Below the pieces are notes generated by a model. It made no database searches. It saw nothing but the letters and a program-made list of their open reading frames with translations, and was not told the DNA's origin. Position numbers and translations under genes: made by a program. A DNA stretch of 64,000 nt from Thermoplasmata archaeon (GTDB taxonomy: Archaea; Thermoplasmatota; E2; DHVEG-1), in the NCBI GenBank assembly GCA_020054475.1, contig JAHWGJ010000002.1, forward strand, positions 38,100 through 102,099, read 5' to 3'. Below are positions 30,392 to 45,572 of the stretch, piece by piece; the stretch's first letter is position 1, and every line of letters begins with the position of its first letter.

Positions 30392-30480
30392 ATTGCATCT
30401 ATCTTTTAATAACAGGTATTATGTATTGCACAATAGTATATATGTTGAATTAATATAAATAGTTATTCATACAATCGATA

Positions 30481-30562
30481 TTTTGTCTCTCAGGATGCTT
30501 CAAAATATGATGTCTATTAATATCATAATCAGCAAGCGATAATGTTACATATGTTGCAATAC
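30481..30562 (+). repeat. island intergenic repeat, copy A (full length)
   Basis: TTTTGTCTCTCAGGATGCTTCAAAATATGATG..ATCATAATCAGCAAGCGATAATGTTACATATGTTGCAATAC aligns with copies B and E. Confidence 0.8.
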
Positions 30563-30644
30563 ATTTTATATTATTAGCATATTTATACTTACCAAAAGAT
30601 TTATTACATATGTATTACACATATTATAGTAAAAGGGAACCTCT

Positions 30645-30845
30645 ATGCCAATGAAATGTCAAATATGTAGAAAATTTTTTGGAATTGTATATAAAAAACA
30701 TAAATTAAAAGATGGTAAAATTGTTTGTATTGACTGTTTAGAGAGAATACATGAAAAAAACCACCATTCTCAAGAAATGACAAAAAAACATATATGTAAA
30801 TATTGTAATAATAAAATTCATAGAGTAAGTAAAGGATGGTCATAG
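30645..30845 (+). CDS. small zinc-ribbon protein
   Basis: 66 aa with three CxxC pairs (CQIC, CIDC, CKYC), lying downstream of repeat copy A. The antisense ORF 30643-30879 is low-complexity junk. Confidence 0.4.
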   Translation: MPMKCQICRKFFGIVYKKHKLKDGKIVCIDCLERIHEKNHHSQEMTKKHICKYCNNKIHRVSKGWS

Positions 30846-30899
30846 TTGGATAGTTGAAAAATAATCCCGCGAATCTCACTTATAGAATTTCTAATATAA

Positions 30900-30923
30900 A
30901 CATCATATTCAGCAAGTAATAAT
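30900..30923 (+). repeat. island intergenic repeat, copy H (module 2 fragment)
   Basis: ACATCATATTCAGCAAGTAATAAT matches the core of copies A, B, E, F and G. Confidence 0.6.
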
Positions 30924-30926
30924 TCA

Positions 30927-31895
30927 TTAACCTTCTGGAAAAAATAGATACTTATGTACTTCTTTAAAATTAAAATATTTAAAATTTCTCATACTCCCAG
31001 GAAATTTATTATTAATTTCACCCATAATTTCATTTAGATGAGATAAATCTTTAACGAAAAATTCTAATTCTAAATGAGAAGAACCTGTTGTAAAATCAAT
31101 CGAAAAAAGATGAATGTTATTTTTAATATAATTTATAATTTTGTCACGTTGACTGTAGTCTTTCAAATAAATATCAAGTTTGAAATATTGATAACCGAGT
31201 TTAGTATGATCAATATTAGCTCTAAAACTTTTTATTATCTCAGTTTTTTTAAGTTTATTAATTCTATATTTTATTGCTTCAGGACTCATCCCAATTTTTC
31301 TAGATATATTTACTAAAGGAGTTCTCGCATTAGAAGAAATTATTTTTAATATTTCAATATCAATATCATCAACTTCAATAGGTTTGTTTCCACCCATAAC
31401 ATCAATATATTTTGAGTGTTCAATTTTATTTATATCTCCGAGTATAAATGATAATTTATGAGTTATATATTTTATATATAAGGAGAGAGTTTGATCTTGA
31501 AAATAATCACCATATTTTTTTAGAGTTTCTTGCCAATATTTATAAAAACCATTCTGATCTTTTATCCAAAATACAACCTCAAAATCATATCCACCTTGAA
31601 GTGAATAAACTACAACAGCTGATTTTGTTTTCACAAAATGATCAATTATCTCTTTTTTTATATTCTCTGTTAAGTATTGAAATATGAAATATATTCGTAT
31701 AACAGTATAACCTAAACGTATTCCATCTATAAATGTGTAATAATTTTGTATTATTCTATTTTTTTCTAGTTTTTTTATTCTATAATCAACTGAATTTTTT
31801 GATAGATTTACTTTTTTCCCTAATTGATTTAGTGATTGTCTAGCATTTAAACTTAATTGAAATAATATTTTTCTATCTTTTAAATCAATGTTCAT
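30927..31895 (-). CDS. tandem (duplicated) Lrp/AsnC-family transcriptional regulator
   Basis: 322 aa with two HTH_AsnC units (DLKDRKILFQLSLNARQSLNQLGKKVNLS.NSV.YRIKKL and DIDIEILKIISSNARTPLVNISRKIGMSPEAIKYRINKL), each followed by a RAM-like domain. Confidence 0.8.
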   Translation of the reverse strand: MNIDLKDRKILFQLSLNARQSLNQLGKKVNLSKNSVDYRIKKLEKNRIIQNYYTFIDGIRLGYTVIRIYFIFQYLTENIKKEIIDHFVKTKSAVVVYSLQGGYDFEVVFWIKDQNGFYKYWQETLKKYGDYFQDQTLSLYIKYITHKLSFILGDINKIEHSKYIDVMGGNKPIEVDDIDIEILKIISSNARTPLVNISRKIGMSPEAIKYRINKLKKTEIIKSFRANIDHTKLGYQYFKLDIYLKDYSQRDKIINYIKNNIHLFSIDFTTGSSHLELEFFVKDLSHLNEIMGEINNKFPGSMRNFKYFNFKEVHKYLFFPEG

Positions 31896-31995
31896 TTATA
31901 TAACAATACGTAATGTTATATATATAATAATTACGTTTTGTCAGAAAATATAGTAATTATAGTTTATATATGCTAATTTTGATAATAAAATAGGA

Positions 31996-32217
31996 ATGAA
32001 AAATATGGATAGAATAAATCTTACAATTGCTTTAATGTGGATATTTCTTATAATTACATTAATATTAAGTATTTTCTATAATTTAAATCTCTTCTTTTTT
32101 ATCATACTATTTTCTATAATTATTCTTTTAACAATTTTTCTTATTTTTGAATATCAACCTGACTCTAACCAGAATGAATCTGTAAAAAATAATGAAAGAA
32201 TCGAGGTGAAAAAATGA
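31996..32217 (+). CDS. small two-TM membrane protein
   Basis: 73 aa, two hydrophobic helices, and an ATGA overlap with the next gene. Confidence 0.45.
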   Translation: MKNMDRINLTIALMWIFLIITLILSIFYNLNLFFFIILFSIIILLTIFLIFEYQPDSNQNESVKNNERIEVKK

Positions 32218-33419
32218 AAAAAACAATATATTGTATTTTTGGAGTGATATTTCTTTTAATTTCGACAAGTTTTGGACTTGCATGTACTGGTTTTACAGCA
32301 TCGGATGATAATAAAGTTCTTGTTGGAATAAACGAGGACAACATTCCTTCAAGGAGATGGGTTGAAATATTTCCCCCTGATGAAGGGAAATTTGGAAAAA
32401 TCTTTTTTTGTTATCAAATAAATGGTCGTCAACAAGGCATGAATGATCAGGGATTATTTTGGGATGGCTTTTACGCTCCATATTTAGAGATTACAAAAGG
32501 TGAAGGTAAGATTTCAATTCCAGATAGACAATATTTTTTTAATAATACCTTGGCTGAGAATTGTTCAACCGTCTATGATGTTGTCGATCTTTTAAACCGC
32601 CATGACATACGTGATTTTAGATATGAGGAATTGCAGATATTGTTTGTTGATAGATTTGGAAACTCCATGATTTTCGAAGGTGATGAGTATGTGTTTAAAG
32701 AGGGAGATTACCAAGCGGTCACTAATTTTTATCAAACCCATCCTGAACTTGGCGGATATGGTTTTGATCGATATGAAACTGCTATTACCATGCTTGAAAA
32801 TATGAATGAATTATCTATGAATTATTTCCGTGACATTTGCGATGCGACACATCAGGAGTGGAATTATCCATATCCAAAGACAATTTATTCCCTTGTTTGT
32901 GATCTTACCCATAATAAAATAAATTATTACTATGAATATGATTATAGTAAAGTATGGGGGATTAATTTAACTGAATTATTCGAATATGGAAGAAATACAT
33001 ATGATGTTTTAAAAATCCTTAACAATCATAATCCAAATAAACCCTTTCGCCCTGATGGTCCAAAGAACGGTGAAACAAGTAAAGAATATAATTTTACAGC
33101 ATCAACATCTGATAACGATGGAAATCAGATTTATTATAAATGGGATTTCGGCGATGGAAATATAAGTGAATGGCTGGGTCCATATGATTCAAATGTAAAA
33201 TGTTATATTAATCATACATGGTACAATGAGGGACAATATAGTGTTAGAGTAATGGCAAGAGATACGAATTGTGGGAAAAGTGATTGGTCAAACCCTTTGG
33301 TAATTAGTATGCCAAAAAATTTACATCACATTAATACATTAATTGATATGATTAATTATTTTTTCAATAATTTTTATAAGTATTTCAAAAGTATTTTTTC
33401 GGTTGAGGTATACACATGA
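32214..33419 (+). CDS. secreted Cys-Ntn hydrolase (C45/C59 linear-amide hydrolase-like) with the shared PKD-like/SMP tail module
   Basis: The signal peptide ends ..SFGLA|CTGFTASDDNKVLVGINEDN, placing the nucleophile Cys right after the predicted cleavage site. C-terminus ..YYKWDFGDG..GPYDSN..GQYSVRVMARD..SDWSNPLVISMPKN.. Confidence 0.75.
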   Translation: MKKTIYCIFGVIFLLISTSFGLACTGFTASDDNKVLVGINEDNIPSRRWVEIFPPDEGKFGKIFFCYQINGRQQGMNDQGLFWDGFYAPYLEITKGEGKISIPDRQYFFNNTLAENCSTVYDVVDLLNRHDIRDFRYEELQILFVDRFGNSMIFEGDEYVFKEGDYQAVTNFYQTHPELGGYGFDRYETAITMLENMNELSMNYFRDICDATHQEWNYPYPKTIYSLVCDLTHNKINYYYEYDYSKVWGINLTELFEYGRNTYDVLKILNNHNPNKPFRPDGPKNGETSKEYNFTASTSDNDGNQIYYKWDFGDGNISEWLGPYDSNVKCYINHTWYNEGQYSVRVMARDTNCGKSDWSNPLVISMPKNLHHINTLIDMINYFFNNFYKYFKSIFSVEVYT

Positions 33420-35011
33420 AAGGATATAAAATTAATATTTTAAAAGGGGAAAAAACAATTGAAAAAATTACATGTTTTATATTATTAATTATATTACTTT
33501 CATCTGTATTTCCATCTGTAATATCCTCAATTAAATTCCATGAATCTGATTTAGGTATTGAATGGAGTAAAACATATGGGAGCTCAGAATGGGATTTCTT
33601 ATTTAATGTAGATGAAACAACAGATGGAGGTTATTATACTTCAGGTACAACGGAAATTTCAAATATGTATTATGGTTGGATAATGAAATTAGATTCAAAA
33701 GGACATATTGAATGGGAAATAATAGAAGAAGATACTCGATGTTCAAATCTTAATTACCTTTTAGTATATAATGCAATTCAGACAAAAGATGAGGGATTTA
33801 TCATTTGTGGTAGTACTCAAGATGATGAAAATAATTTGGTTGGATTTGTTATTAAATATGATTTAGATGGAAATAAGCAATGGAGTAGAATATATGGTGA
33901 CAAGGATTCTAATCAGATTACAAATGTTCTTGAATTAGATCAAGGATATATGGCTATTGGTATTGAATCAATAAATGATGATTATTATAGTCCACTAATA
34001 AAGATTGATAATGATGGTTTAGTTGAATGGAAGAAAAATTTTAATTATGGCGAAAATCCCGATATGTTTTGGGGTATTTGCAGTACAAACGATAATGGAT
34101 TTATATTATCTGGAACAACTGGTTGGGCTCAACCAAATGCTGATATTTGGCTTGTAAAAACAGATGCTGAAGGAAATTTGATTTGGAATAAGACGTATGG
34201 CGGAGACGCTGCTGAGGAATTTAGACCAAATAAATGTAGTATAGCATCTGATGGTGGTTTCATTATTGGTTGTGAATCCAACTCTTTTGGATCTGGAGAT
34301 CTAGATGGTTGGATTTTTAAAATTGATTCCGATGGAAATATGCTTTGGGATAAAACATTTGGAGGGGAAATGCAGGATCGGATTTGGGGGATGGATAATA
34401 CAGTTGATGATGGATTTATTTTTTGTCTTAATAAAAATTATGACAGGAGACCAAATACTGAGATTGATTTGATAAAATTAAATAGCAATGGAGAGGTAGA
34501 TTGGATTGTAAATTATGCAACCCCTAAAGTATGTATGGGTTATCAGATAAGTCAAACAAGTGATAATGGTTTTATTTTAGCATTAAGAATTAATGGAGGA
34601 TATGGATCATCTAATGCGGATGGAGCCTTAGTAAAAATATCAGAAAAAATTAATAATAAACCCGATAGACCTATTCAACCTCAAGGAGAATCTAATGGAA
34701 AAACGGGTAAGGAATATACATATTCTACAGTTACAATTGACCCAGAAGGTGAACAACTGTATTATTTTTGGGACTGGGGTAACGGCAATAACAGTGGTTG
34801 GATTGGCCCATATGATTCTGGTGAAGAATGTTTGGTTTCTTATAACTGGAAATCTGATGGTAATTATTCAATTAGAGTAAAATCAGAGGATAATCTTGGA
34901 TATGAGAGCGAATGGTCAGATCCTCTCGTTATAAGTATGCCAAAAAATAAGGATCGGTCTCCATTATTTTATTGGTTTTTATCAAAATTAGTATCTTTTT
35001 TCATTTTTTAG
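33416..35011 (+). CDS. secreted beta-propeller-repeat protein with the shared PKD-like/SMP tail module
   Basis: 531 aa. Repeats of the type DGG(F/Y)I..G.T.S.G.G..D.W..K.D..GN..W.KT(F/Y)GG. C-terminus ..YYFWDWGNG..GPYDSGEE..GNYSIRVKSED..SEWSDPLVISMPKNK..FYWFLSKLVSFFIF. ATGA overlap with the upstream gene. Confidence 0.85.
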   Translation: MKGYKINILKGEKTIEKITCFILLIILLSSVFPSVISSIKFHESDLGIEWSKTYGSSEWDFLFNVDETTDGGYYTSGTTEISNMYYGWIMKLDSKGHIEWEIIEEDTRCSNLNYLLVYNAIQTKDEGFIICGSTQDDENNLVGFVIKYDLDGNKQWSRIYGDKDSNQITNVLELDQGYMAIGIESINDDYYSPLIKIDNDGLVEWKKNFNYGENPDMFWGICSTNDNGFILSGTTGWAQPNADIWLVKTDAEGNLIWNKTYGGDAAEEFRPNKCSIASDGGFIIGCESNSFGSGDLDGWIFKIDSDGNMLWDKTFGGEMQDRIWGMDNTVDDGFIFCLNKNYDRRPNTEIDLIKLNSNGEVDWIVNYATPKVCMGYQISQTSDNGFILALRINGGYGSSNADGALVKISEKINNKPDRPIQPQGESNGKTGKEYTYSTVTIDPEGEQLYYFWDWGNGNNSGWIGPYDSGEECLVSYNWKSDGNYSIRVKSEDNLGYESEWSDPLVISMPKNKDRSPLFYWFLSKLVSFFIF

Positions 35012-35036
35012 AATAGATTTAAGGAGTTTGGAATGA

Positions 35037-35204
35037 GTGATTAAAGAAATCCCTTCAATAAAAAAAATGTTATTTGGGATTATGATTATGTTAATAGGAG
35101 GTTTTATTATGCTAAATGAATCTCTAAACCTTCGTGGAATTGAATTTTTTTTTATACTTGGCGGGTTTTTAATGGGTATTTTAGGGTTATTTTTTAATGA
35201 TTAA
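35037..35204 (+). CDS. possible 55-aa two-TM membrane peptide
   Basis: GTG start 11 nt after AAGGAG. Hydrophobic sequence ..MLFGIMIMLIGGFIML..FFFILGGFLMGILGLFF. Below the ORF-track cut-off. Confidence 0.3.
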   Translation: MIKEIPSIKKMLFGIMIMLIGGFIMLNESLNLRGIEFFFILGGFLMGILGLFFND

Positions 35205-35251
35205 ATATGAGTGAATAATATGAATAAAATATTATTTAATGAGGTGAAAAA

Positions 35252-36439
35252 ATGAGAAAAATTGGACGAATAATATCAGTTATAATATTTTTTATTATTT
35301 TAATACAATTAGCAGGCGTTATTCTTTATAGTGAAAAAAATGATGTAATCGCTGATGTCTTGATTTATACTGGCCCTGGTGCATGGGGAACAGGTTATCG
35401 TGCTTTTGAAAAATTTCTTGATTATAAAAATCTTACATGGTTTGAATGCAATCATAACTTTATAAATAATAATGATTTAGAGGGAAAATTTAAGGTAATT
35501 CATTTTCCTGGTGGATCTCCAGGCGAATACAGTAATTCAATAAATCTTGCGGGTCATAAAAATATTAGAGATTTTGTTTCTTCAGGTGGGGGATATGTTG
35601 GAATTTGTGCGGGGGGTTATTTTGCAGCAGATATAAACATCTGGGAAGGAAACACATATGATATTCCATTGAATTTATTTTCAGGAACAGCATATGGGGC
35701 AATTGACGAAATAATACCTTGGCCAGGATATAAAATGACTAATATCACAATAAATAAATCTAATCCAATTAACCTTTATGAACCAATTTCACAGACAATA
35801 TTATATTATGGAGGCGCAGCATTTTACCCAAATGAAGGACAACAAATTAATATTATAGGAACTTACGACTCATTAAACAACGATCCTGCTATTATAAATT
35901 TAAATTATGGAGATGGGCGAGTATTATTATTTGGACCGCATCCTGAAATCGAAGAAGATAGCGATCGTGATGGAGAAACCACTTTTCATTTTTTAGAAGA
36001 TAATGGTACAGATTGGAATCTGTTATGGACTTCAATGGATTGGTTAATGAAACGAGAAATTTCAGAACCGCCTATGTCTGTACAACCTGATAAACCTGAT
36101 ATAAAAGGTATGTTGAATGGAAAAAATGGAATTGAATATAACTATACAATTTATACTAATGATCCTGATTTGGATGAAGTATATTATTATATTGACTGGG
36201 ATGATAATTCAATAAGTGATTGGTTTGGTCCATATAAATCAGGAGAAATAATTCAAATTACTCACTCTTGGAATAAAATCGGTAAATATAGTGTACGAGC
36301 CAAAGCTAGAGATATGAACAATTTAGAAAGTGAATGGTCAGATCCTCTCGTTATAAGTATGCCAAAAAATAAAATCAATATGAATTTAATAATTTGGAGG
36401 TTTCCATTATATAAATATCTTTTATCAATTATTGCGTAG
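35252..36439 (+). CDS. secreted class-I glutamine-amidotransferase-like (BPL_N-type) protein with the shared PKD-like/SMP tail module
   Basis: N-terminal TM/signal segment, then VIHFPGGSPGEY and a GGGYVGICAGGYFA nucleophile-elbow pattern. C-terminus ..YYYIDWDDN..GPYKSGE..GKYSVRAKARD..SEWSDPLVISMPKNK..IIWRFPLYKYLL. Confidence 0.7.
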   Translation: MRKIGRIISVIIFFIILIQLAGVILYSEKNDVIADVLIYTGPGAWGTGYRAFEKFLDYKNLTWFECNHNFINNNDLEGKFKVIHFPGGSPGEYSNSINLAGHKNIRDFVSSGGGYVGICAGGYFAADINIWEGNTYDIPLNLFSGTAYGAIDEIIPWPGYKMTNITINKSNPINLYEPISQTILYYGGAAFYPNEGQQINIIGTYDSLNNDPAIINLNYGDGRVLLFGPHPEIEEDSDRDGETTFHFLEDNGTDWNLLWTSMDWLMKREISEPPMSVQPDKPDIKGMLNGKNGIEYNYTIYTNDPDLDEVYYYIDWDDNSISDWFGPYKSGEIIQITHSWNKIGKYSVRAKARDMNNLESEWSDPLVISMPKNKINMNLIIWRFPLYKYLLSIIA

Positions 36440-36441
36440 AA

Positions 36442-36499
36442 AAGAAAGGAAAACAGAGCTATAATGCTGCAATACTGCTATTATCTGTTTTCCTTTCTT
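36442..36499 (+). terminator. 16-bp perfect hairpin immediately after the 35252-36439 gene
   Basis: AAGAAAGGAAAACAGA (36442-36457) pairs perfectly with TCTGTTTTCCTTTCTT (36484-36499), leaving a 26-nt loop. The hairpin begins 3 nt after the TAG stop. Confidence 0.5.
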
Positions 36500-36653
36500 C
36501 CCTCCCAAATAAACATCCGTTAACGGTATAATTAATAGTACTAAATATTCTATTATGTAGATAAATGAAGGGAGAATTATTGTAATTCCGAATTATAATA
36601 ATTCTTTTTGATATTACTAGATGGAATAAGGAATATAAGGGGAAAGAAAATAA

Positions 36654-37034
36654 ATGAGAAAACATCTAATTGTGTCTGGAATTGTATTTGTTTTACTGAT
36701 GGTAAATTTAAGTGGATGTAATGATATACTAGAAGCACCTAAAATTGAATTTATTCAAGAAGATGGGTGGCTTATAGTCAGCTTCGTTGAAAAATCAATT
36801 TTATCTTGGGATAATATCAATATTTCACTCTCGTCAGGTAAATATTCGGATATTGGTTTTCATTATAGTCCTGAAATATCTTCTCTTATACCATATGGTA
36901 ATGGAAACTCCTGCCCTAGTGATTGGGGTGTTATCGTTGAAGATAACGGTATCTTTTTTCAACTTATTGATGCAATTGTAACGTTATACTGGATACCTAC
37001 TAATGTATCCTTTGGAGAATGGGATTTTACATAA
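36654..37034 (+). CDS. small secreted/lipoprotein-like protein
   Basis: 126 aa with signal peptide and lipobox-like LSGC (VFVLLMVNLSGCND). Confidence 0.5.
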   Translation: MRKHLIVSGIVFVLLMVNLSGCNDILEAPKIEFIQEDGWLIVSFVEKSILSWDNINISLSSGKYSDIGFHYSPEISSLIPYGNGNSCPSDWGVIVEDNGIFFQLIDAIVTLYWIPTNVSFGEWDFT

Positions 37035-37078
37035 AATTAATCATTCTTTTTCTCTTAAGCACTAATAAAACTTTAATA

Positions 37079-37160
37079 TTTTATCTCTCAGGAGGCTTCA
37101 AAAATATGATGTAATGCTACATCATAATTAGCAATAATTAATGTTACAAGTGTTACAATT
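37079..37160 (+). repeat. island intergenic repeat, copy B (full length, contains 9-bp palindrome)
   Basis: TTTTATCTCTCAGGAGGCTTCAAAAATATGATGTAATGCTACATCATAATTAGCAATAATTAATGTTACAAGTGTTACAATT. The palindrome TATGATGTA-ATGC-TACATCATA lies at 37105-37126. Confidence 0.8.
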
Positions 37161-37217
37161 ATTATCCATATGATTAAATAGAAATCTTCAAAAATCAAAC
37201 TTAGTTCCAAATGTTAC

Positions 37218-38243: not shown

Positions 38244-38265
38244 TAAAGGACAAGCAAATAGCATT

Positions 38266-38301
38266 TTGTCTCTCAGGAGGCTTCAAAACAAAGTTTTTTG
38301 T
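38266..38301 (+). repeat. island intergenic repeat, copy C (module 1), forming a 36-bp perfect inverted repeat with 40193-40228
   Basis: TTGTCTCTCAGGAGGCTTCAAAACAAAGTTTTTTGT is the exact reverse complement of 40193-40228. Confidence 0.85.
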
Positions 38302-38569
38302 GTTGAATGGATTTTATTTAATTAACAATAATAAGTTTTTTAATATATTCTGATAAAGGAGTAATGGAAGAATTTTAGTAAAAGCGAGGGAAAAAAGGAG
38401 AACAGTAGATAAGTAAAAAACCATTGTTACTGCCCCCTTTCTTCTATAATTATCGGCATCAAAATATAATATAAAAGGATTTCTATCAAAATCCTGTTTT
38501 CTCCTTATTAGTTTCAAGATATCTATTTTGTAAATATAATTATATATATCATTCAAATATGGAAATTTA

Positions 38570-38833
38570 ATGGAAAGTAAAGATTTTGAAAATATTAATG
38601 ATAAGTTAGATAGAATTGAAAGAAAAATTAACAAGGTTCAAAATGAATTATCTTTTTCATCAATCTTTACTCTTGCTGTTTTTGAATCTACATTGGCAGC
38701 TGCTCTTTTAAGTTTTGGATTTTCAGTTAATGATGAGATTAGTATATGAGTTGGATATTTCTTATTTGCACTTGCAGTATTTTGCTGGTTTTATCTATTT
38801 TATGATGGACATAAAAAACGAAAAAATAGATAA
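38570..38833 (+). pseudogene. small membrane-protein ORF interrupted by an in-frame TGA
   Basis: MESKDFENINDKLDRIERKINKVQNELSFSSIFTLAVFESTLAAALLSFGFSVNDEISI-TGA(38747)-VGYFLFALAVFCWFYLFYDGHKKRKNR. It reads as one coiled-coil plus two-TM protein and ends 17 nt before attR. Confidence 0.3.
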
Positions 38834-38849
38834 TATTATGAACTTTCTT

Positions 38850-38869
38850 TTCAAATCCGGGAGGCGGGA
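38850..38869 (+). repeat. attR: copy of the tRNA-Tyr 3' end
   Basis: TTCAAATCCGGGAGGCGGGA is identical to 21723-21742. Confidence 0.8.
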
Positions 38870-38934
38870 TATCTTTATAAAGAAAGTATCTAAAATATTA
38901 ATTATTATTAAAAGAATATCATTTTAATTAAAAA

Positions 38935-40008
38935 ATGAAAACTGAAAAAACAAAAGCTATAAAAATAGAATTAAAAGATGCGGAAAAAACACGTTTATAT
39001 CTGAAAGAAAAAAATATTTTAAAAAATAATTTAAAAATAAAAAAAGATGAAAATTACATATACCTACCTATAAGAAATAATATAAATAAAAATAAAGATT
39101 GCAATTATAATATTATAATAACGAATTTTGAGAAACAAAATAAGAAAATAAATTCTTATAAAGAATTATTATTAAGAAATAATAAAATAACATCAAAAGA
39201 AATTTTAAATAAATTACCAACTTCGTATGATATTATTGGAAAAATAATTCTTATAAAATTACAAGATGAACTAATAAAATATCAAAAAGAAATTGGAGAA
39301 TCCCTTCTAAAAGTAAATAATAATGTCAAAACAATATGTACTATAGAACCAGTAAAAGGAGAATTAAGGACAAGAAATATAAAAATCATATCTGGTGAAA
39401 AAAATACAAAAACAATACATAAAGAAAATGGAATAAAATATAATATTGATCTTAGAAAAATTTATTTCTCACCTAGACTCGCAACAGAAAGAATGAGAAT
39501 AACAAATTTAGTCAAACCAGAAGAAGTAATAGTTGACATGTTTACAGGATTAGCTCCTTTTTCAATAAATATTGCAAAATATGCAAATCCAAGGAAAATA
39601 TATGCAATTGATAAAAACAAATACGCAATAGAATATGCAAAGAAAAATATTAGAATTAACAATGTTCTAGATAAAATCGAAGTTATCCATTCTGATGCAA
39701 AAAAAGTTAATGATATTCTAAATAAAAAAAACGAAAAAGCTAATAGAATAATTATGAATCTACCTTTTTCTGCAAAATCTTTTTTACCATATGCCTTTAA
39801 AATATCAAAGGAAAAAATAATAATTCATTACTATGATATAATAAAGGAGGAAGATATAAATAATAGGATAAAAGAGCTGAAAAAAATAGCTAAAGTTAAT
39901 AACTATAAAATCATAAATTTCAATATTATAAAAATTAAGACATATTCGCCACGAGAATTTTATATATGTATAGACATTACTGCAAAAAAAAATATTATGC
40001 CGACGTAG
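38935..40008 (+). CDS. trm5: tRNA (guanine37-N1)-methyltransferase Trm5 / Met-10+ family
   Basis: 357 aa. SAM-MTase motifs VVDMFTGLAPFSI, IYAIDKNKYAIEYAKKN and IIMNLP, with the D2 domain pattern YDIIGKIILIK. The stop codon TAG lies inside the acceptor stem of tRNA-Thr. Confidence 0.85.
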   Translation: MKTEKTKAIKIELKDAEKTRLYLKEKNILKNNLKIKKDENYIYLPIRNNINKNKDCNYNIIITNFEKQNKKINSYKELLLRNNKITSKEILNKLPTSYDIIGKIILIKLQDELIKYQKEIGESLLKVNNNVKTICTIEPVKGELRTRNIKIISGEKNTKTIHKENGIKYNIDLRKIYFSPRLATERMRITNLVKPEEVIVDMFTGLAPFSINIAKYANPRKIYAIDKNKYAIEYAKKNIRINNVLDKIEVIHSDAKKVNDILNKKNEKANRIIMNLPFSAKSFLPYAFKISKEKIIIHYYDIIKEEDINNRIKELKKIAKVNNYKIINFNIIKIKTYSPREFYICIDITAKKNIMPT

Positions 40009-40072
40009 CTTAGACCGGTTGAGCGGCTGACTTGTAATCAGCAGGTCGAGGGTTCGAATCCCTCCGTCGGCT
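39999..40072 (+). tRNA. tRNA-Thr (anticodon UGU)
   Basis: Acceptor GCCGACG/CGTCGGC, anticodon stem GCTGA/TCAGC with loop CTTGTAA, T arm GAGGG-TTCGAAT-CCCTC. Confidence 0.9.
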
Positions 40073-40073
40073 T
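40057..40073 (+). repeat. attL2: 3' end of tRNA-Thr, direct repeat of 45726-45742
   Basis: AATCCCTCCGTCGGCTT is identical at both sites. Confidence 0.65.
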
Positions 40074-40192
40074 CCCTAAGTTCTTTTCCCATGTTGATTG
40101 CAACAAAAGTAACATTTCTGATTTGCGGCTTTGAACATAAATAAATATCAGATGATAAAGTTAAATTCAAAATACTAAAAATTGTAATCAAA

Positions 40193-40228
40193 ACAAAAAA
40201 CTTTGTTTTGAAGCCTCCTGAGAGACAA
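40193..40228 (-). repeat. island intergenic repeat, copy D (module 1), the inverted partner of 38266-38301
   Basis: The reverse complement equals TTGTCTCTCAGGAGGCTTCAAAACAAAGTTTTTTGT. Confidence 0.85.
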
Positions 40229-40464
40229 CCTTGTTATAAAAAATATTTTGGCAGAAATGCCAGCTGGAGGGGAGGAAGATGGGATGCTACCAGGGCTGGC
40301 ATGTCCCCCATATTATTCGTCGAGTTAAGGGAACATGGTGTTTTTAGTTTATATATGTAAAAAGTGGGTGGATGAAAGTATTTTATACTCAATTCGTAAT
40401 TAAAAAATAGAAGGAGGAAGAGAATAATTATAGGGAAACGTAGATTTTCTTTCTCCCATTTTCA

Positions 40465-41448
40465 CTATATTAGGAATTCTAGAATTGGAAATCGTTGAAT
40501 TAATCTTAATATCCAAGGATTGAAATCATTGATTGATTTGCTTCTTGGCATTGAAACAGATAACGGATCTGACCATTCGCTCTGAGCTCCATTACTATCT
40601 TTTGCTTTTACTCTGATCTCATAGGTTCCCTGTGAAGTCCATGAGTGAGATGTACTAACTGTTGCTCCAGATGCATAGTAACTTCCACTGTTATCATCCC
40701 ATTCATCAACAACATTGTCTCCATTCCAGTCCCAAGCATACTTGACTTTATCGCCATCTGGATCAGTTGTAGATGAGGAATATGTATATGACTTTCCTAT
40801 TTCTCCCGAAGTTGGGCCAGAAGGAGTACTTGGATTAAAAGGAGGAAAATTTCCACCATCATCAGATAACTTTGCAACAAAAACATCACTATATCTTTGG
40901 CTTTGGCTGGTTAGAGTGTATGGGCCAAAATCTGCAATACCACTGAAATATCCAGTTACTATTGTGGAGCCGTCCGAAAGCGTTACGATTGCCTGGCCTG
41001 CATCCTTATAATACATCCCACCTGCACGTTTCCCCCATGCGATAGTGCCGTCGGAATTGTACTTGGCCAAGAAAATATCGGTACTACCATCTGAAACCAG
41101 AACAGTTTCGGAATTTTCACCTTTCCCGAATGTCGCTGAACCACTGAAATATCCAGTTACTATTGTGGAGCCGTCCGAAAGCGTTACGATTCCCTGGCCT
41201 GCATCCTCAGACGTCCCACCTGCCCCTTTTGCCCATTGCCAGTCCCCGTTTTTATTTAATATATTACTTTCTCCTTCTTTATGTCTATTAAAAAACGATT
41301 TATAATCAGCAGTAGTTGAACTACTAGTTATACCTTTATAAATGGAAATATTGGATTTAACATCATTTAATTCTACACATCCATTTACTGAAAAAGCAGT
41401 CGCAATCAACAGCGTCAAAACAAAAATTCCAATAATTTTCTTCATCAT
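40465..41448 (-). CDS. secreted SBBP-like beta-propeller-repeat protein with the shared PKD-like/SMP tail module
   Basis: 327 aa. Signal peptide, duplicated GQ(G/A)IVTLSDGSTIVTGYFSG units, and C-terminus ..KYAWDWNGD..GTYEIRVKAKD..SEWSDPLSVSMPRSK..ILRLIQRFPILEFLI. Confidence 0.85.
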   Translation of the reverse strand: MMKKIIGIFVLTLLIATAFSVNGCVELNDVKSNISIYKGITSSSTTADYKSFFNRHKEGESNILNKNGDWQWAKGAGGTSEDAGQGIVTLSDGSTIVTGYFSGSATFGKGENSETVLVSDGSTDIFLAKYNSDGTIAWGKRAGGMYYKDAGQAIVTLSDGSTIVTGYFSGIADFGPYTLTSQSQRYSDVFVAKLSDDGGNFPPFNPSTPSGPTSGEIGKSYTYSSSTTDPDGDKVKYAWDWNGDNVVDEWDDNSGSYYASGATVSTSHSWTSQGTYEIRVKAKDSNGAQSEWSDPLSVSMPRSKSINDFNPWILRLIQRFPILEFLI

Positions 41449-41530
41449 TTTTATCTCCCTAACATAGGTTCCCCTGATTATTATAATGCAATCTTAATTT
41501 AAAACATTAACGCATGTAAACATGTGTTAT

Positions 41531-41606
41531 CGCAACATTTGTAGCATTATCACTTGGTGAATATGATGTAGTCATTCATCATATTTTGAAGCCTCTCGAG
41601 AAATAA
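41531..41606 (-). repeat. island intergenic repeat, copy E (full length)
   Basis: Reverse complement: GTTATTTCTCGAGAGGCTTCAAAATATGATGAATGACTACATCATATTCACCAAGTGATAATGCTACAAATGTTGCG. Confidence 0.8.
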
Positions 41607-41679
41607 CTTCTCATATAATATAAAGTGTGATTCTAAATTTCAACGAAATAAATTTAAACAAAACCAAAATGTCACCAAT

Positions 41680-42648
41680 ATGCTCAAATCTATACGATTA
41701 ATTGCTACCATTTCTAGGGCAGAGTTTATTTTACCTAATCTCGGCTCTCTAATCATGGGAGTTGCATGGGGGGTTACATCAGATATTAGTTTGACTAATT
41801 TGATTATTTTAATTATTTTATCTTTTTCAATTATCAATCTTAGCTCTGCAATTGGCGCCCAAATCAATACCCTCTCTGATTATGAGTTGGATTTGAAAGA
41901 TGATCGAAAGAAAAAACTTGTTCAATCTTTGGATTCCTTTGGAAAAAACCGTATGAAAGTCGTCTTACTGATTGAGTTTATTATCACTTTGATATTGGTC
42001 ATTTTATTCATGGTTCTCCAAAATAATCCAATCCTATTGTTGATGTGGGTTGTTGGAATTTCATTAGGGTGGATATATTCTGCTCCACCAGTTCGTTTAA
42101 AATCAAGATCTTGGCTTGCACCAGTATCATTAATACTTGTTCTTGGAATCTTTCCAGTTTTGTTTGCATATTTGACATTTACTTCAGTATTTCAACTATT
42201 CTTTCTTCTTGCTATTGCCGGGTTGGCTCTTACTATATATGGTGTGATTATACCAACAGAGATTAGAGATTACTTTGGAGACAAGGTGATGGATATTGAC
42301 ACAATGACTGTACATCTTGGTCTTGTTAAAGCATCTTTTACATGTATTGTTTTGATATGCCTCGGTGGAATTCTTTTTACTACAGCATTTCTCCTTGAAT
42401 GGATGAATGGCCCTCGACCATTCTTAAGTTTTTTACTTCTAATTATACCTATTTCAATTTTCTATGTTATCAGAAGTGTAAAGAAACTCTATTCCCTCTC
42501 CAAAGAGTACATTATATCGCAAGAAAATAATTCTTTGAAGGATCAGATAATAAACATATCTGCACACAATCCAAAGTGGATTATGATCATTACCCAAACT
42601 TATAGCATCCTATCTATTATTCTCCTTGTGAATAAATTTTTAATCTAA
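41680..42648 (+). CDS. UbiA-family membrane prenyltransferase (copy 2, divergent)
   Basis: 322 aa, polytopic. NTLSDYELD (N-x3-D-x3-D) and a second acidic motif RDYFGD. Confidence 0.75.
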   Translation: MLKSIRLIATISRAEFILPNLGSLIMGVAWGVTSDISLTNLIILIILSFSIINLSSAIGAQINTLSDYELDLKDDRKKKLVQSLDSFGKNRMKVVLLIEFIITLILVILFMVLQNNPILLLMWVVGISLGWIYSAPPVRLKSRSWLAPVSLILVLGIFPVLFAYLTFTSVFQLFFLLAIAGLALTIYGVIIPTEIRDYFGDKVMDIDTMTVHLGLVKASFTCIVLICLGGILFTTAFLLEWMNGPRPFLSFLLLIIPISIFYVIRSVKKLYSLSKEYIISQENNSLKDQIINISAHNPKWIMIITQTYSILSIILLVNKFLI

Positions 42649-42722
42649 TTATGAAACGGCATTATAAAATTTTTTTCTACTAAATTGAAATTGTGAATAG
42701 ATTCTTCTATAAAATAAAAATA

Positions 42723-42753
42723 TCATTATTACTTGCTGATAATGATGTCAACC
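42723..42753 (-). repeat. island intergenic repeat, copy G (module 2 fragment)
   Basis: Reverse complement: GGTTGACATCATTATCAGCAAGTAATAATGA. Confidence 0.6.
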
Positions 42754-42804
42754 TTCGTTTGTTGACTTAAATAGTTATAAATTCTTAACACATTCAATAA
42801 AACA

Positions 42805-43797
42805 ATGATTAATGTTAGAAACTTCTTTCCGAGATACTTTGACATATCAGAGGAAAACGGAATTGCAAGATATGTACAGTGTAAACACGTTTCTGTTAAT
42901 TTTAGTAAGTTAGAAACCACCGATTTTTTGTGGAAAAAACATGACACTGCCATTCAAAACATGAAGCTTTGTGATATTGAACCAGAAAAATCTCTATTAG
43001 ATCTTAAAATAGAGTTAGCATCTAGAATGTTTAGGGAATGTTGTTTCTGCGAAAGAAGATGTAAGGTTGATCGGACAAAAGAATCAGGGAATTGTGGAGT
43101 ACAACAACCTGCAATCGCATCTGAATTTTTACATCTTGGGGAAGAAAGCGTACTTATACCATCATATACTGTTTTTTTCTCAGGATGTACATTTCATTGC
43201 GTGTTTTGTCAGAACTGGGACATAAGTCAACGTAACGCAGGTATTTTTATTGAACCTGCAGTATTGGTAAAAATGATACGTGCAAGAAAAAATCAAGGTG
43301 CAAGAAATGTTAATTGGGTAGGTGGTGATCCTACACCCAACATTCTTTATATTCTTGAAACGTTGAAAAATTGTAATGTAAATATCCCTCAGATTTGGAA
43401 TTCAAATATGTATTGTTCAATGGAGACTATAAAACTTCTCAATGGTGTTATTGATTTGTATCTTACAGATTTTAAATATGGAAACGATGAATGTGCTCAA
43501 CGTCTATCAAAAGTTGATAATTACATGGACATTATCAAAAGAAATCACAGAATCGTAGAAAAAAATGGGGAGATGATTATACGTCATCTTGTAATGCCTA
43601 CCCATATTGAATGCTGTTCAAAATCAATACTGCAGTGGATCGCCGATAATATTTCAAATATTCCAGTCAACATCATGGGACAATACCGTCCAGATTATTT
43701 TGCAAAAAAATATCAAGACATCTCTTGCAGTGTATCATCAGAAGAAATTAGAACTGTTGAAGATTTTGCAAAAAAATTACAAATCATTTGTTTGTAG
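42805..43797 (+). CDS. radical SAM enzyme, PflX-like (COG1313, PFL-activase homologue)
   Basis: 330 aa with the CTFHCVFCQNWDIS CxxxCxxC cluster motif, preceded by the extra Cys cluster CCFCERRCKVDR..GNCG typical of PflX-type proteins. Confidence 0.85.
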   Translation: MINVRNFFPRYFDISEENGIARYVQCKHVSVNFSKLETTDFLWKKHDTAIQNMKLCDIEPEKSLLDLKIELASRMFRECCFCERRCKVDRTKESGNCGVQQPAIASEFLHLGEESVLIPSYTVFFSGCTFHCVFCQNWDISQRNAGIFIEPAVLVKMIRARKNQGARNVNWVGGDPTPNILYILETLKNCNVNIPQIWNSNMYCSMETIKLLNGVIDLYLTDFKYGNDECAQRLSKVDNYMDIIKRNHRIVEKNGEMIIRHLVMPTHIECCSKSILQWIADNISNIPVNIMGQYRPDYFAKKYQDISCSVSSEEIRTVEDFAKKLQIICL

Positions 43798-43850
43798 AAT
43801 TATTACTTGGGGGATATGATGGAAATGGATATAACAAATAGAATAATTGT

Positions 43851-45473
43851 TTACTCAAGATAGAAGAAAAACAATAACAATATTCCTCTAATATCTGCTA
43901 AAACCTTCGGCGCGTTATCTGCCCAAGCGGCACCTGTTATCTCAGTGTGGCCAAACCCTAATATTAAACGCGTTTTTCCAACTGTTATTTCTTGGTCGGG
44001 TTCAAGAGTTCCTATTATTAAGCCAGAGGATTGTCCTCCTAAGATAATGAAATCTCCATCAATTGTAATACTCCAGCTGACATTATATGCAACGTCATTT
44101 CCAATATTCTTTACGGTCATTTTCATTGGTGATAAATCACTTATAACAAGTACAGGTGTTGGTATTGTTTCATATGATGAAAAGTAAATATCATAATTAC
44201 CGTTTCTTAAATCGGTAAAAACAATTCCACTTTCACATATATCAATAGAACCCTTTTTACTAACAACTGTCCCATTTACATCATTTTTCCGCATCGCCTC
44301 ATTCCATGTAACACCAGCATCTTCAGATATTTTAAGGTAGAGATTCCCTTTTTTCACATAAGAACAATACACATTGTTACCTTGCATGTATACAGCAGGA
44401 GTACTAGCATTACTTTCAACAGTAGATACTTGCCAGTTGAACCCTGGTTCATATACTGCTGAGGTGTTACTCGATTTACATATAACATTTTCATCTTCAA
44501 CATACACAACACAAACCTTGTTTCCACTACCCGAAACATCTGGGTCTGTTCCGATTCCAAGATATTCACTAGGCATTACTTCAGGATCCCCATATTTCTC
44601 CATACCATTTTTTTGTCTTCCACTAGTAATAAGGCGCTCATTCATGACGTTTGTTTTTATACTGATTTTTGTTCCACTATCAAAATCAGTTTCGAAAACA
44701 AAAAAGAGTTGATTAGCATTTGAGTCCATTTCTAGTTGTGATGCTGGAGCGGATTGAAAAAATGAGTTACCATCGGAGTAGAAACCCCCCATCACTGGCG
44801 GAGGTTCAAAGTCAGGGTATGTATAGTATCCCAGGTTCAATGTCTGTAACAATCCATAGGTGTCTTCAGTTGTAAGTGATAAGAAGAAATTGTTCGTACA
44901 CGCACATGCACAATAAAAGTAATCTGTTCCACCTGAAATTCCATACCATAATGCCTCTGCAGCATTTGCGATATCTCCAGAGATAAAGGACATTTCATTG
45001 TTATAGATTTCTGCATTTGGGTCAATCATTGTAAGATACAGCAAATCATTAGGATAATTATATACAATATCCGGGTATTGTAGTAATCCTGTACCGCTGG
45101 AAAAGTTAATGGAGTCAAATAAGAATTGCTCATTCCATAAATAACCATTAGTAGAATACACAACAGGTATCTGACTTCTATTTAAACCGATTTCTTGTTC
45201 AAAAACGACAATAGAATGACCAAGATTATTTGTTGTCATTCTTGGGTGAAAATCATTTCCAATATTATTGGATATTAAAGTATTATCAACAAGACATTGT
45301 TGTCCCATAACATCATTTTTTATAGCTTTAATATTCTGTTGCCATGGGTCATCTATATTATCATCAACATATATGATATTATTAGAAGAAACTTCATAGG
45401 TGGAGACAAAAGGAAGTATACTTGAATGTAACAATAAAACAAATCCTAACATCAAGGAAATATTTTTCATCAT
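43851..45473 (-). CDS. secreted BNR/Asp-box repeat protein
   Basis: 540 aa. Signal peptide and one clear Asp-box SEDAGVTWNE. No PKD/SMP tail. Confidence 0.65.
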   Translation of the reverse strand: MMKNISLMLGFVLLLHSSILPFVSTYEVSSNNIIYVDDNIDDPWQQNIKAIKNDVMGQQCLVDNTLISNNIGNDFHPRMTTNNLGHSIVVFEQEIGLNRSQIPVVYSTNGYLWNEQFLFDSINFSSGTGLLQYPDIVYNYPNDLLYLTMIDPNAEIYNNEMSFISGDIANAAEALWYGISGGTDYFYCACACTNNFFLSLTTEDTYGLLQTLNLGYYTYPDFEPPPVMGGFYSDGNSFFQSAPASQLEMDSNANQLFFVFETDFDSGTKISIKTNVMNERLITSGRQKNGMEKYGDPEVMPSEYLGIGTDPDVSGSGNKVCVVYVEDENVICKSSNTSAVYEPGFNWQVSTVESNASTPAVYMQGNNVYCSYVKKGNLYLKISEDAGVTWNEAMRKNDVNGTVVSKKGSIDICESGIVFTDLRNGNYDIYFSSYETIPTPVLVISDLSPMKMTVKNIGNDVAYNVSWSITIDGDFIILGGQSSGLIIGTLEPDQEITVGKTRLILGFGHTEITGAAWADNAPKVLADIRGILLLFFFYLE

Positions 45474-45510
45474 TACCTCCCAATATAATATTAGATGTTC
45501 TGATATAAAA

Positions 45511-45572
45511 TCATTTGTAGCATTATTACTTGCTGATTATGATGTCAATTGATATGATTTTGAGAATTGTAC
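45511..45572 (-). repeat. island intergenic repeat, copy F (module 2 intact, module 1 degenerate)
   Basis: Reverse complement: GTACAATTCTCAAAATCATATCAATTGACATCATAATCAGCAAGTAATAATGCTACAAATGA. Confidence 0.7.

Follow-up and report, generated by a model that had tools for sequence, protein, structure and literature searches.

Short intergenic repeats punctuate two islands within a 64-kb stretch of Thermoplasmatota DNA, here called the window, and they are tentatively read as the att-like junctions of cassettes arrayed in an integron-like manner, on which a putative recombinase encoded elsewhere would act. Of the three functions offered in the original prediction, namely a PadR/Lrp operator, a 5' leader RNA and cassette-shuffling recombination sites, the last is the best supported, as adjacent copies share one polarity in 25/25 pairs, the units hold single genes, homology breaks at the core, and a close relative carries different cargo.

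The repeat family and its two host islands

The repeat family is real. Nine loci are found in the window, all at 30.4-45.6 kb (Table 1); the rest of the 64 kb is devoid of copies, and its 49 kb of core genes hold none. The eight loci initially described are all recovered, with A, B and E as the full copies, and the core of X adds a ninth. Module 1, TGTCTCTCAGGAGGCTTCAAAA, occurs at 30484, 37082 and 38267 (+) and at 40206 (-) with 0-1 mismatches, where shuffled sequence gives 0 expected matches, and nhmmer adds a fifth copy at 41582-41612 (-); the best further match in the window reaches only E=0.07. Module 2 is present in seven copies (A, H, B, E, G, F and X), with the best further match in the window at only E=0.41. 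Copies C and D, listed earlier as partial, are genuine but consist of module 1 alone, joined to a hairpin other than that of A, B and E, and together they form a 50-nt inverted repeat (90%) flanking Trm5-tRNA-Thr. As had been stated, both UbiA genes have copies on either side, and A, B, E and F precede start codons at short range. All nine loci lie within the two islands, so the family is island-restricted in the window, whereas the core recurs in many uncultured archaea across the Thermoplasmatota lineage.

Both islands are bounded by direct repeats of tRNA 3' ends. Homology with the relative L170 begins at the attR of island 1, and homology with L169 and L172 restarts about 35 nt left of the attR of island 2. 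The polarity of the repeat is opposite in the two islands, which stand 2 kb apart. The sole recombinase in the window is the tRNA-targeting integrase of island 1, located 7 kb from the nearest array copy, and none is array-linked. The motif is absent within 10 kb of homologues of this integrase in three other genomes, and a phmmer search finds no relative of it in the 43 genome-scan loci.

Table 1. Islands, tRNA-derived ends, integrase and repeat copies in the window.
Feature	Positions	Strand	Parts and context
attL, island 1	21653-21742	+	intron-containing tRNA; last 20 nt repeated at 38850-38869
Island 1	21743-38869		contains the integrase
Tyrosine integrase, island 1	21782-22990	+	PF00589
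Copy A, full	30477-30562	+	module 1 30484-30505; weak hairpin 30508-30529; core 30522-30544; right arm to 30562; module 2 30510-30560; between divergent PadR gene and Zn-ribbon ORF; 83 nt to start codon
Copy H, core only	30896-30939	+	core 30902-30924; both flanks unrelated to the family; overlaps stop of opposite-strand Lrp-type gene
Copy B, full	37076-37160	+	module 1 37082-37103; 9-bp hairpin 37105-37126; diverged core 37121-37143; module 2 37110-37159; 58 nt upstream of UbiA-1
Copy C	38261-38315	+	module 1 38267-38288 and different hairpin TCAAAACAAAGTTTTTTGTGTTGA; no core; 17 nt past UbiA-1 stop; final unit of island 1 array
attR, island 1	38850-38869	+	20-nt copy of tRNA 3' end
attL, island 2	39999-40072	+	tRNA-Thr(TGT)
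Island 2	40073-45743		
Copy D	40179-40232	-	inverted twin of C; 107-160 nt from tRNA-Thr; final unit of island 2 array
Copy E, full	41528-41612	-	module 1 variant; 9-bp hairpin; core 41545-41567 (variant ATCATATTCACCAAGTGATAATG); module 2 41528-41578; 80 nt upstream of SBBP/PKD gene; divergent from UbiA-2
Copy G	42711-42757	-	core 42724-42746; between UbiA-2 and radical SAM gene, antisense to both
Copy X	43783-43830	-	degenerate core 43798-43820 (18/23); overlaps radical SAM stop codon
Copy F	45506-45562	-	perfect core 45521-45543 and right arm; module 2 45506-45553; 33 nt upstream of BNR-like gene; opening unit of island 2 array
attR, island 2	45726-45743	+	17-18 nt copy of tRNA-Thr 3' end

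A conserved core with interchangeable arms

The 23-nt core, ATCATAATCAGCAAGTAATAATG, keeps 20-23/23 identity across some 80 copies drawn from over ten Thermoplasmatota MAG species, an apparent invariance that is inflated because the copies were gathered starting from an exact-pattern scan; the genes flanking it in the same species are only 65-90% identical. Within this set of 80 copies at 54 loci, the internal 13-mer CATAATCAGCAAG shows at most one mismatch in 64/80. The repeat has no match in virus, plasmid and Rfam searches, and its sequence was not found in the published literature. Dyad symmetry of the core is weak (ACATCATAAT-CAGCAA-GTAATAATGT, 7/10 with a 6-nt spacer), with p estimated at roughly 0.01 for each register before correction for the number tried.

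Discrete arm types flank the core and are interchangeable. The left arm is either AATCATGCTAACCATCAAC (type I) or module 1 with an inverted left-arm copy (type II), the latter giving rise to the hairpin described in the original prediction, and the right arm reads YTACAAATG(TTGCAAT). Hybrid sites are seen in every combination: either left arm type occurs with the right arm and without it. Similarity between copies begins at 0 to +2 on the left side and stops at +14/15 or at +20 to +23 on the right.

In part of the left arm the variation is codon-like, a point against cassette-junction sites that raises the possibility of a translated micro-ORF, whose leader or coupling peptide would tune expression of neighbouring genes. 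The frame ATC ATA ATC AGC AAG TAA would then end a hydrophobic peptide of 10-15 aa (MLTINIIISK, 10 aa; MMSINIIISKR in copy A). Module 1 places AGGAGG 9 nt before ATG, so that type II copies have a correctly spaced canonical Shine-Dalgarno sequence; an in-frame ATG is present in 19/65 copies and a common stop codon, followed by a second TAA, in 58/65. Left-flank codons vary as ATH, TCN-ACN or AAY, synonymous changes make up a fraction of 0.34 where 0.18 would be expected, and the three codon positions carry 72/69/153 substitutions. However, an ATG is missing from the other 46/65 copies, in which the frame is closed by a stop a few codons further upstream, copy B meets a stop at codon 3, and C, D, L146 and L169 carry module 1 with no ORF at all. 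The consensus carries C at every third base, where drift from C to T, in a genome of 30% GC, would look like wobble, and synonymous changes within the core are not elevated (about 0.25 versus about 0.19 expected). With site orientation tracking the array rather than the gene, a micro-ORF is an unlikely explanation, second among the four alternatives weighed here.

The hairpin TATGATGT...ACATCATA, earlier described as a conserved structure, does reach 9 bp in both B and E, but it is weak in A, is confined to one repeat sub-type and shows 0 compensatory changes among the five known copies of that sub-type. Copy D folds significantly (z = -4.1), type I copies fold no better than shuffles (z = -1.2 and +0.8), and folding is non-significant in most copies. 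An RNA-level element transcribed with its neighbours, for instance a processing site, a terminator or 3' end, or a common leader, would fit the T-runs after the C and D hairpins, the folding of D and the left arms that often begin 0-20 nt after an upstream stop codon. The shuffle-like folding of type I copies and the lack of compensatory pairs and of an Rfam match argue against it, as do a core without a U-tract and an orientation independent of gene strand, about one quarter of neighbouring genes lying on the other strand. Such an element, including the 5' leader proposed earlier, is the least probable of the alternatives.

Intergenic placement and uniform polarity

Every copy examined is intergenic, and none of 60 lies inside an ORF of at least 90 aa. 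Copies are spaced 0.3-2 kb apart around single accessory genes of unrelated function, including UbiA (six times), radical SAM, MFS, C45 and beta-lactamase-like hydrolases, GNAT, glyoxalase and also peptidases. Adjacent copies remain co-oriented even where genes flip: other-strand genes make up 11/41 of those downstream and 13/38 of those upstream of sites, and at locus L014 all genes are antisense to the sites. Start codons lie at anything from 5 to over 300 nt from the core; upstream stops, by contrast, are clustered 11-43 nt before it. Full tRNA genes lie within about 300 nt of copies at L005, L008, L025, L028 and L029, and tRNA 3' fragments stand beside copies at L020, L037, L041 and L042.

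These figures bear on an operator or upstream activating site, which would unite secreted and membrane accessory proteins in a regulon under PadR/Lrp or a factor encoded elsewhere. In its favour, A, B, E and F stand in sense orientation 33-83 nt before start codons, the right arm is succeeded by a TATA-like box in one sub-family (window E, L001, L024 and L025), 30/41 downstream genes are co-oriented with the site, and an ATGT...ACAT palindrome may resemble PadR sites. An operator nevertheless appears improbable, third among the alternatives, given the variable distance to start codons, the other-strand genes and the wholly antisense array of L014. PadR/Lrp-type genes are not motif-associated at other loci, the core occurring at many MAG loci without such regulators (HTH_24 in 2/122 neighbouring ORFs). 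A near-invariant 23 nt across genera, far more constant than usual operators, is atypical, and uniform array polarity is not what an operator would predict.

Mosaic homology and cargo turnover

Homology blocks between loci begin at -10..0 or stop at +21..+28 relative to the core. L039 and L041 (91.5%) keep the core and downstream gene and differ on the upstream side, while L031, L034 and L042 keep the upstream gene and core and differ downstream. In the relative L169, flanks 92-93% identical to those of the window enclose the same tRNA-Thr island, with a D-type end at the place equivalent to copy D and same-oriented cores; its cargo genes are entirely unlike those of the window island, and the left breakpoint is the exact outer edge of module 1. 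L170 and L172 are additional island variants; L172 keeps the left flank of copy F (about 170 nt, to the tRNA fragment), and its contig terminates within a core.

The mosaic pattern alone is not specific, because any dispersed repeat would also yield mosaics. A non-autonomous selfish repeat, MITE- or REP-like and inserted into intergenic DNA by a trans-acting transposase (for example a single-strand HUH enzyme), could account for multiple copies that are intergenic throughout, for unrelated flanks on both sides and for the sub-terminal palindrome of one sub-type; strand-specific insertion would even yield the locally uniform orientation. Many copies also sit at contig ends and hence break assemblies. 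Yet terminal inverted repeats, target duplications and defined ends are lacking, the constant part is only a 13-23 nt core with interchangeable arms, and the majority of copies do not fold. Instead of a generic genome-wide MITE, copies are few per genome and clustered, with 1-8 strict matches per MAG and one only in the 2.3-Mb chromosome record CP070724.1. Their absence from the core genes of the window and the reversed polarity of neighbouring islands add to the case against, and a selfish repeat is judged unlikely, albeit the foremost of the alternatives.

A proposed model for cassette exchange

For the cassette-junction reading, the junction sequence would separate single-gene cassettes in tRNA-inserted islands of a Thermoplasmatota lineage, with the asymmetric core as the crossover site of a putative site-specific recombinase encoded elsewhere in the genome. 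Two direct copies would recombine into a circle with one gene and one site, and inserting this circle again at a different copy would restore an array of co-directional sites. The outcome would resemble integrons in how it is organised and att/dif in the kind of site. The observations are the conserved sequence, the strict confinement to intergenic DNA, the single polarity, the hybrid sites, the mosaic neighbours and the exchange of cargo between close relatives, with a breakpoint at the edge of the repeat; the action of the recombinase on the core, its identity and the circular intermediates are inferred. No excised circle and no empty site is observed, nor any single-cassette insertion or deletion between near-identical genomes, and a further point against the reading is that the breakpoints on the two sides do not share a single overlap region of 6-8 bp.

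Comparison with known systems

REP/BIME, ERIC and Correia elements are also short conserved intergenic repeats, often placed directly after stop codons, but they are palindromic and dispersed genome-wide in hundreds of copies, whereas the present repeat is mostly non-palindromic, low-copy, island-clustered and uniformly oriented.

Lambda-type att sites and tandem accretion at tRNA genes offer a common core with arm types forming hybrids like attP, attB, attL and attR, with tRNA genes or 3' fragments nearby, as well as the integrase and tRNA direct repeats of island 1. In contrast, the present core bears no relation to the att repeats of the tRNAs, each unit is a single gene that lacks an integrase of its own, and the island integrase family is not motif-associated elsewhere.

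Integron cassette arrays and CALINs (attC clusters without integrase) are reported in Archaea (Ghaly et al. 2022, PMC9668308), in a text that does not mention Thermoplasmatota. They share mostly single-gene accessory cassettes separated by recombination-type sites in one orientation, cargo that varies between close relatives and includes GNAT, glyoxalase and small membrane proteins, and the frequent absence of an adjacent integrase. Unlike theirs, the present sites are conserved in sequence rather than structure, most do not fold, and they lack the R''/L''-L'/R' palindrome and the RYYYAAC/GTTRRRY boxes. Moreover, no IntI-type integrase is found here, the arrays lie inside tRNA-bounded islands, and the cassettes appear to have their own promoter-like sequences.

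Xer/dif-exploiting IMEX and the pdif modules of Acinetobacter plasmids differ in that pdif sites are inversely oriented around modules whereas the present ones are direct, in the weak arm symmetry seen here (7/10) and in the chromosomal, tRNA-bounded location of the present arrays. Shared with the present repeat are short sites of about 26-28 bp that are conserved in sequence across species, consist of two arms around a 6-bp centre and flank discrete gene modules; the recombinase of those systems is host-encoded and unlinked to the modules, as may also hold for the present arrays.

Repeat copies and their host islands

The host is an archaeon of about 30% GC, and the window includes an intron-containing tRNA together with genes for archaeal RNA polymerase, L1/L10, TiaS and Trm5. 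An island that targets a tRNA is flanked by the intact tRNA on one side and by a direct repeat of its 3' end on the other; it has an integrase and is missing from relatives. Islands 1 and 2 of the window belong to this class, an assignment that concerns the islands as hosts and not the repeat. In island 1, a tyrosine integrase of 402 aa that ends in a zinc ribbon adjoins the intron-containing tRNA, whose 3' end recurs 17 kb away, and island 2, without an integrase, is bounded in the same manner by tRNA-Thr. By sequence comparison, two relatives confirm both insertions: the tRNA and Trm5 lie just 1.3 kb apart in L171, from which island 1 is thus absent, and the homology of L170 to the window begins exactly at 38850. 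In another relative, L173, the tRNA of island 1 is occupied by a different element, with a D5 primase and without the motif. The attR copy of island 2 retains the T-stem of tRNA-Thr (GAGGG...CCCTC), its T-loop being exchanged for about 21 nt, and a GGCTTT(G/C)AACC-like motif stands near both ends of this island as well as near copies in the loci L028 and L041.

The repeat consists of two halves, module 1 and module 2, the latter including a 23-mer core; both halves are present in the full copies A, B and E. The family of eight copies described in the original prediction is real according to both the mismatch search and nhmmer, and a ninth locus, X, had been overlooked. Module 1 (TGTCTCTCAGGAGGCTTCAAAA) occurs four times in the window with at most one mismatch, versus zero expected. 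With nhmmer profiles built from the copies, module 1 is found at five loci (A, B, C, D and E) and module 2 at seven (A, H, B, E, G, F and X), the best remaining scores in the 64 kb being E=0.07 (module 1) and E=0.41 (module 2). The confinement of the repeat to the two insertions also holds within the window, as all nine loci lie inside the islands and none in the housekeeping parts.

All copies of island 1 are on the + strand and all those of island 2 on the - strand, each array terminating in a module-1-only unit (C or D) that faces Trm5-tRNA-Thr. Because both arrays converge on this segment, the segment could be inverted through the C/D pair. A stretch of about 50% GC, versus 30% for the genome, is located between copy D and the PKD gene and was rejected as a structured RNA: its folding is not significant on either strand, it has no Rfam match and it is absent from the relative L169.

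Features of the window and of related loci, with coordinates (strand in brackets)
Feature	Sequence	Position	Description
Island 1	window	21743-38869	
tRNA of island 1	window	21653-21742	final 20 nt repeated at 38850-38869
Island 2	window	40073-45743	
tRNA-Thr of island 2	window	39999-40072	final 17 nt repeated at 45726-45743
GGCTTT(G/C)AACC-like motif	window	45690-45743; 40110-40140	
Copy X	window	43783-43830	
C/D inverted repeat	window	38266-38315; 40179-40228	50 nt, 90%; module 1 joined to another hairpin, AT-type; Trm5 and tRNA-Thr (core genes) lie between the two arms
GC-rich stretch	window	40246-40345	about 100 nt
UbiA cassettes, motif-flanked	window	37218-38243; 41680-42648	
UbiA cassettes, motif-flanked	L039; L042	2859-3923; 6004-6717	
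PKD modules	window	33276-33322, 34904-34950, 36326-36372 (+); 24121-24158, 25741-25818, 40565-40641 (-)	
Tandem repeats	window	24541-25383	six repeats of 141-162 nt in a 536-aa ORF, 24033-25643 (-)
Conserved module of about 215 nt	L146; L039; L038	1-200; 6056-6269; 120-332	
Conserved module of about 215 nt	L032; L015; L170	1212-1423; 2908-3135; 2040-2230 (reverse)	
Left arm, type I	most MAGs		AATCATGCTAACCATCAAC
Left arm, type II	window A, B, E; L067; L014 (without module 1)		module 1 + TATGATGT-loop-AC
Right arm			YTACAAATG(TTGCAAT)

Distribution and sequence of the family

Beyond the window, the family proved not to be specific to these islands, as its core recurs across the Thermoplasmatota lineage: a profile search over all sequences fetched gave 80 copies in 54 loci. 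An exact-pattern scan with the module 2 core, covering a single genome for each GTDB species, gave 43 loci, of which about 33 lie in Thermoplasmatota-type MAGs. The metagenome scan with module 1 was dominated by chance 18-mer matches, with relatives at only 4 of the 120 loci returned. Bacterial matches in the species scan lack conserved flanks. Contigs labelled Bacteroidales (L003), Bathyarchaeota (L012) and Desulfobacterales (L037) carry the archaeal motif with conserved flanks, as two co-oriented copies in the first and beside a tRNA fragment in the last, and may be mis-binned Thermoplasmatota contigs.

The 23-mer ATCATAATCAGCAAGTAATAATG is identical at 20 to 23 of its 23 positions in most copies, versus 65-90% identity for the neighbouring genes, and its 13-mer CATAATCAGCAAG has at most one mismatch in 64 of the 80 copies. 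This core is all that the aligned copies have in common, the arms being of several unrelated types. Module 1 recurs in L169 and in four metagenome contigs (L067, L131, L141 and L146), and its right edge is sharp at GGCTTCAAAA, with four different continuations beyond.

MITEs and REP elements have terminal inverted repeats or a palindromic body, target-site duplications, defined ends and a high, dispersed copy number. The repeat is not a classical member of either class: the copies display no terminal inverted repeat and, by eye, no target-site duplication, and they are few, with 1 to 8 strict matches per MAG, one in the 2.3-Mb chromosome record CP070724.1 and none in the non-island part of the window (49 kb). 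A viral or plasmid origin was likewise rejected, IMG/VR giving chance coding matches only and PLSDB and INPHARED no match. The core sequence was not found in a literature search.

Position, polarity and cargo

Copies are intergenic, none of the 60 examined lying inside an ORF of at least 90 aa, and they stand 0.3-2 kb apart, mostly with one gene between. Polarity is uniform within every array (25/25 adjacent pairs co-oriented), and neighbouring genes are on the opposite strand at 11 of 41 downstream and 13 of 38 upstream positions; in L014, which has three sites, both genes are antisense to all of them. Some copies lie within about 300 nt of full tRNA genes (L005, L008, L025, L028 and L029) or beside tRNA 3' fragments (L020, L037, L041 and L042).

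The cargo is accessory and diverse, including radical SAM proteins, MFS transporters, C45-like and beta-lactamase-like hydrolases, PKD, GNAT and glyoxalase proteins, methyltransferases and small membrane proteins. UbiA prenyltransferases account for 4 of the 122 neighbouring ORFs of other loci and for two genes in the window. These six cassettes are divergent (pairwise identity of at most 26%, or no detectable similarity), and their recurrence suggests that variation in how membrane lipids or quinones are modified is under selection. UbiA-1 and UbiA-2 of the window show no mutual similarity, so these genes are not duplicates that brought the repeats with them. Radical SAM genes are frequently found near UbiA cassettes.

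Several unrelated secreted enzymes in or near the islands, including C25 peptidase, C45-like, BPL_N-like and SBBP proteins, share a near-identical C-terminal PKD module ending in ...EWSDPLVISMPKNK, which suggests domain shuffling among island genes. Six tandem repeats were also noted in an ORF of island 1 that has no Pfam match.

Sequence patterns that point to exchange at the sites

Homology blocks between loci start at -10 to 0 or stop at +21 to +28 relative to the core. Linkage of the core to either side is seen: L039 and L041 have the core and the downstream cassette in common (91.5%) with differing upstream sides, whereas L031, L034, L036 and L042 share the upstream small-membrane-protein gene and the core and differ downstream. 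In L039 and in L029/L022, an AAT-like cassette has a core at each end and its neighbours differ, which points in the same direction, as do hybrid sites, found in all combinations of arm types.

The strongest case for exchange, on sequence grounds, is L169 (GCA_042767745.1), which matches the window at 92-93% identity in its flanks. It retains tRNA-Thr, the D-type unit, attR and two cores of the same orientation. Its cargo is wholly different (DJ-1/PfpI, cupin, OmdA, an epimerase and a Rce1-like protein), and the breakpoint on the left coincides exactly with module 1's outer edge. In L172, a 70% relative, the 170 nt from attR to core F are kept, and the contig terminates inside the core.

Six contigs share a conserved module of about 215 nt preceded by a degenerate type I arm. 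It includes a small ORF (MPKQKLTLSIDEEIITKAK...SLLEIRLIDYLSDKEK), ribbon-helix-helix-like by eye, the 3' end of which overlaps a tRNA-Glu-like 3' fragment, and the module has the appearance of an integrative element's terminus.

Coding, structural and regulatory readings

The core can also be read as the end of a micro-ORF, as the frame ATC ATA ATC AGC AAG TAA closes a short hydrophobic peptide, and this reading is kept as a rival. A leader peptide has a start and a ribosome-binding site, an intact frame and a stop kept in every functional copy, and its orientation is tied to the regulated gene. An in-frame ATG is present in 19 of 65 copies, predicting MLTINIIISK for type I and MMSINIIISKR, MMNDYIIFTK, MMSISIIIGK and MMFISIIISK for type II, but the start codon is missing in the other 46. 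Module 1 provides AGGAGG 9 nt before the ATG, but the Shine-Dalgarno sequence is limited to this sub-type. The same stop codon closes the frame in 58 of 65 copies and is followed by a second TAA overlapping an ATG, whereas copy B stops at codon 3. Left-flank codons vary as ATH, TCN/ACN and AAY, with a synonymous fraction of 0.34 versus 0.18 expected; however, every third base of the consensus is C, and C-to-T drift would therefore mimic wobble in this frame. Finally, the orientation of the sites tracks the array and not the gene. Coding on the reverse strand (FVALLLADYDVDG) looks protein-like but gives short ORFs in every copy and was rejected. An origin as the 3' end of some long target gene was also rejected, since no in-frame run that ends in the core exceeds 69 codons.

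The hairpin, originally predicted to be conserved as a structure, is confined to type II copies, with six of nine pairs invariant and zero compensatory changes. Compared with shuffles, type I copies give folding z-scores of -1.2 and +0.8, and only B, E and L001 reach about -2 to -2.6. As type I folds no better than its shuffles and the hairpin lacks compensatory change, the data support no attC-like site and no structured RNA. In Rfam, only tRNAs reached the gathering score, with no match at E<0.2 on any repeat copy. A C/D-box sRNA was rejected by inspection, since the D'/C'-like CTGA-TTA-TGATG is accompanied by no C box or proper D box at the required spacing. The suggested operator for PadR or Lrp is not supported either: among 122 neighbouring ORFs at other loci, regulators of these types are not associated with the motif.

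A possible cassette mechanism

A common core, interchangeable discrete arms, uniform polarity and single-gene turnover fit att-type site-specific recombination, a reading that the sequences make plausible at somewhat less than even chances. From this observed comparative pattern we infer catalysis, a crossover point and circular intermediates. Recombination between two direct sites would release a circle with one gene and one site; insertion of this circle into any further site would rebuild an array of uniform orientation. The recombinase would be encoded away from the arrays, as in integron CALINs or Xer-dependent modules. It is possible, if rather unlikely, that Thermoplasmatota thereby possess a cassette system undescribed so far, exchanging single accessory genes between arrays at the att-like core (CATAATCAGCAAG) within a 26-bp site through an unlinked recombinase, possibly a host enzyme.

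Such a system would be an archaeal functional analogue of integrons, invisible to existing attC-based searches. If the repeats are recombination sites, Archaea would have a second way of capturing genes as cassettes, one that does without attC/IntI chemistry. It would be at work in archaea that are abundant in sediments and that shape carbon turnover through their secreted peptidases and membrane enzymes (C25, C45, C15, beta-lactamase-like, UbiA prenyltransferases). The 23-mer would then be a simple tag for the flexible gene pool of Thermoplasmatota MAGs, and assembly breaks in these MAGs would be explained. The swapping of single genes between strains of uncultured archaea becomes a testable question and, whatever the mechanism, a near-invariant 23-nt intergenic sequence across genera calls for explanation.

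Comparison with known systems

The integron-like reading of the original prediction agrees with the arrays in organisation and disagrees in attC structure and IntI. Like integrons, the arrays consist of single genes with sites pointing one way and cargo varying between relatives, as in L169. Integron attC sites are imperfect palindromes with R''-L''...L'-R' boxes that fold as single-stranded DNA, and an IntI-type tyrosine recombinase with attI stands at one array end. The core of the repeat differs from attC in structure: most copies do not fold beyond shuffles and, by inspection, the consensus has no RYYYAAC/GTTRRRY boxes. No IntI-type recombinase was found, the sole recombinase of the window being the tRNA-site integrase, 7.4 kb from copy A. 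Phage_integrase is absent from the families common to at least two of the 122 neighbouring ORFs, and phmmer with the island integrase gave no relative in the 43 genome-scan loci; a recombinase may nevertheless act in trans. This integrase, whose family has more than 1,000 relatives, was rejected as the partner of the motif, three homologue-bearing contigs being without the motif within 10 kb.

A dif-type site spans about 28 bp, with two arms of about 11 bp in dyad symmetry around a 6-bp centre, and resembles the dif of the host. The repeat resembles Xer/dif modules in its short, sequence-conserved site and presumed unlinked recombinase. Its consensus core has a tyrosine-recombinase-like 10-6-10 layout (ACATCATAAT-CAGCAA-GTAATAATGT), with 7 of 10 symmetric positions, a symmetry that is weak evidence for a tyrosine-recombinase site. 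Unlike pdif modules, in which sites are inversely oriented, all arrays here are direct, and the sole inverted pair, C/D, is without the core. Given the integron-like organisation, the failed attC and IntI comparisons, the partial likeness to dif and the dissimilarity to MITE or REP elements, the repeat arrays are rated, on indirect evidence, as cassette arrays whose sites are of another type.
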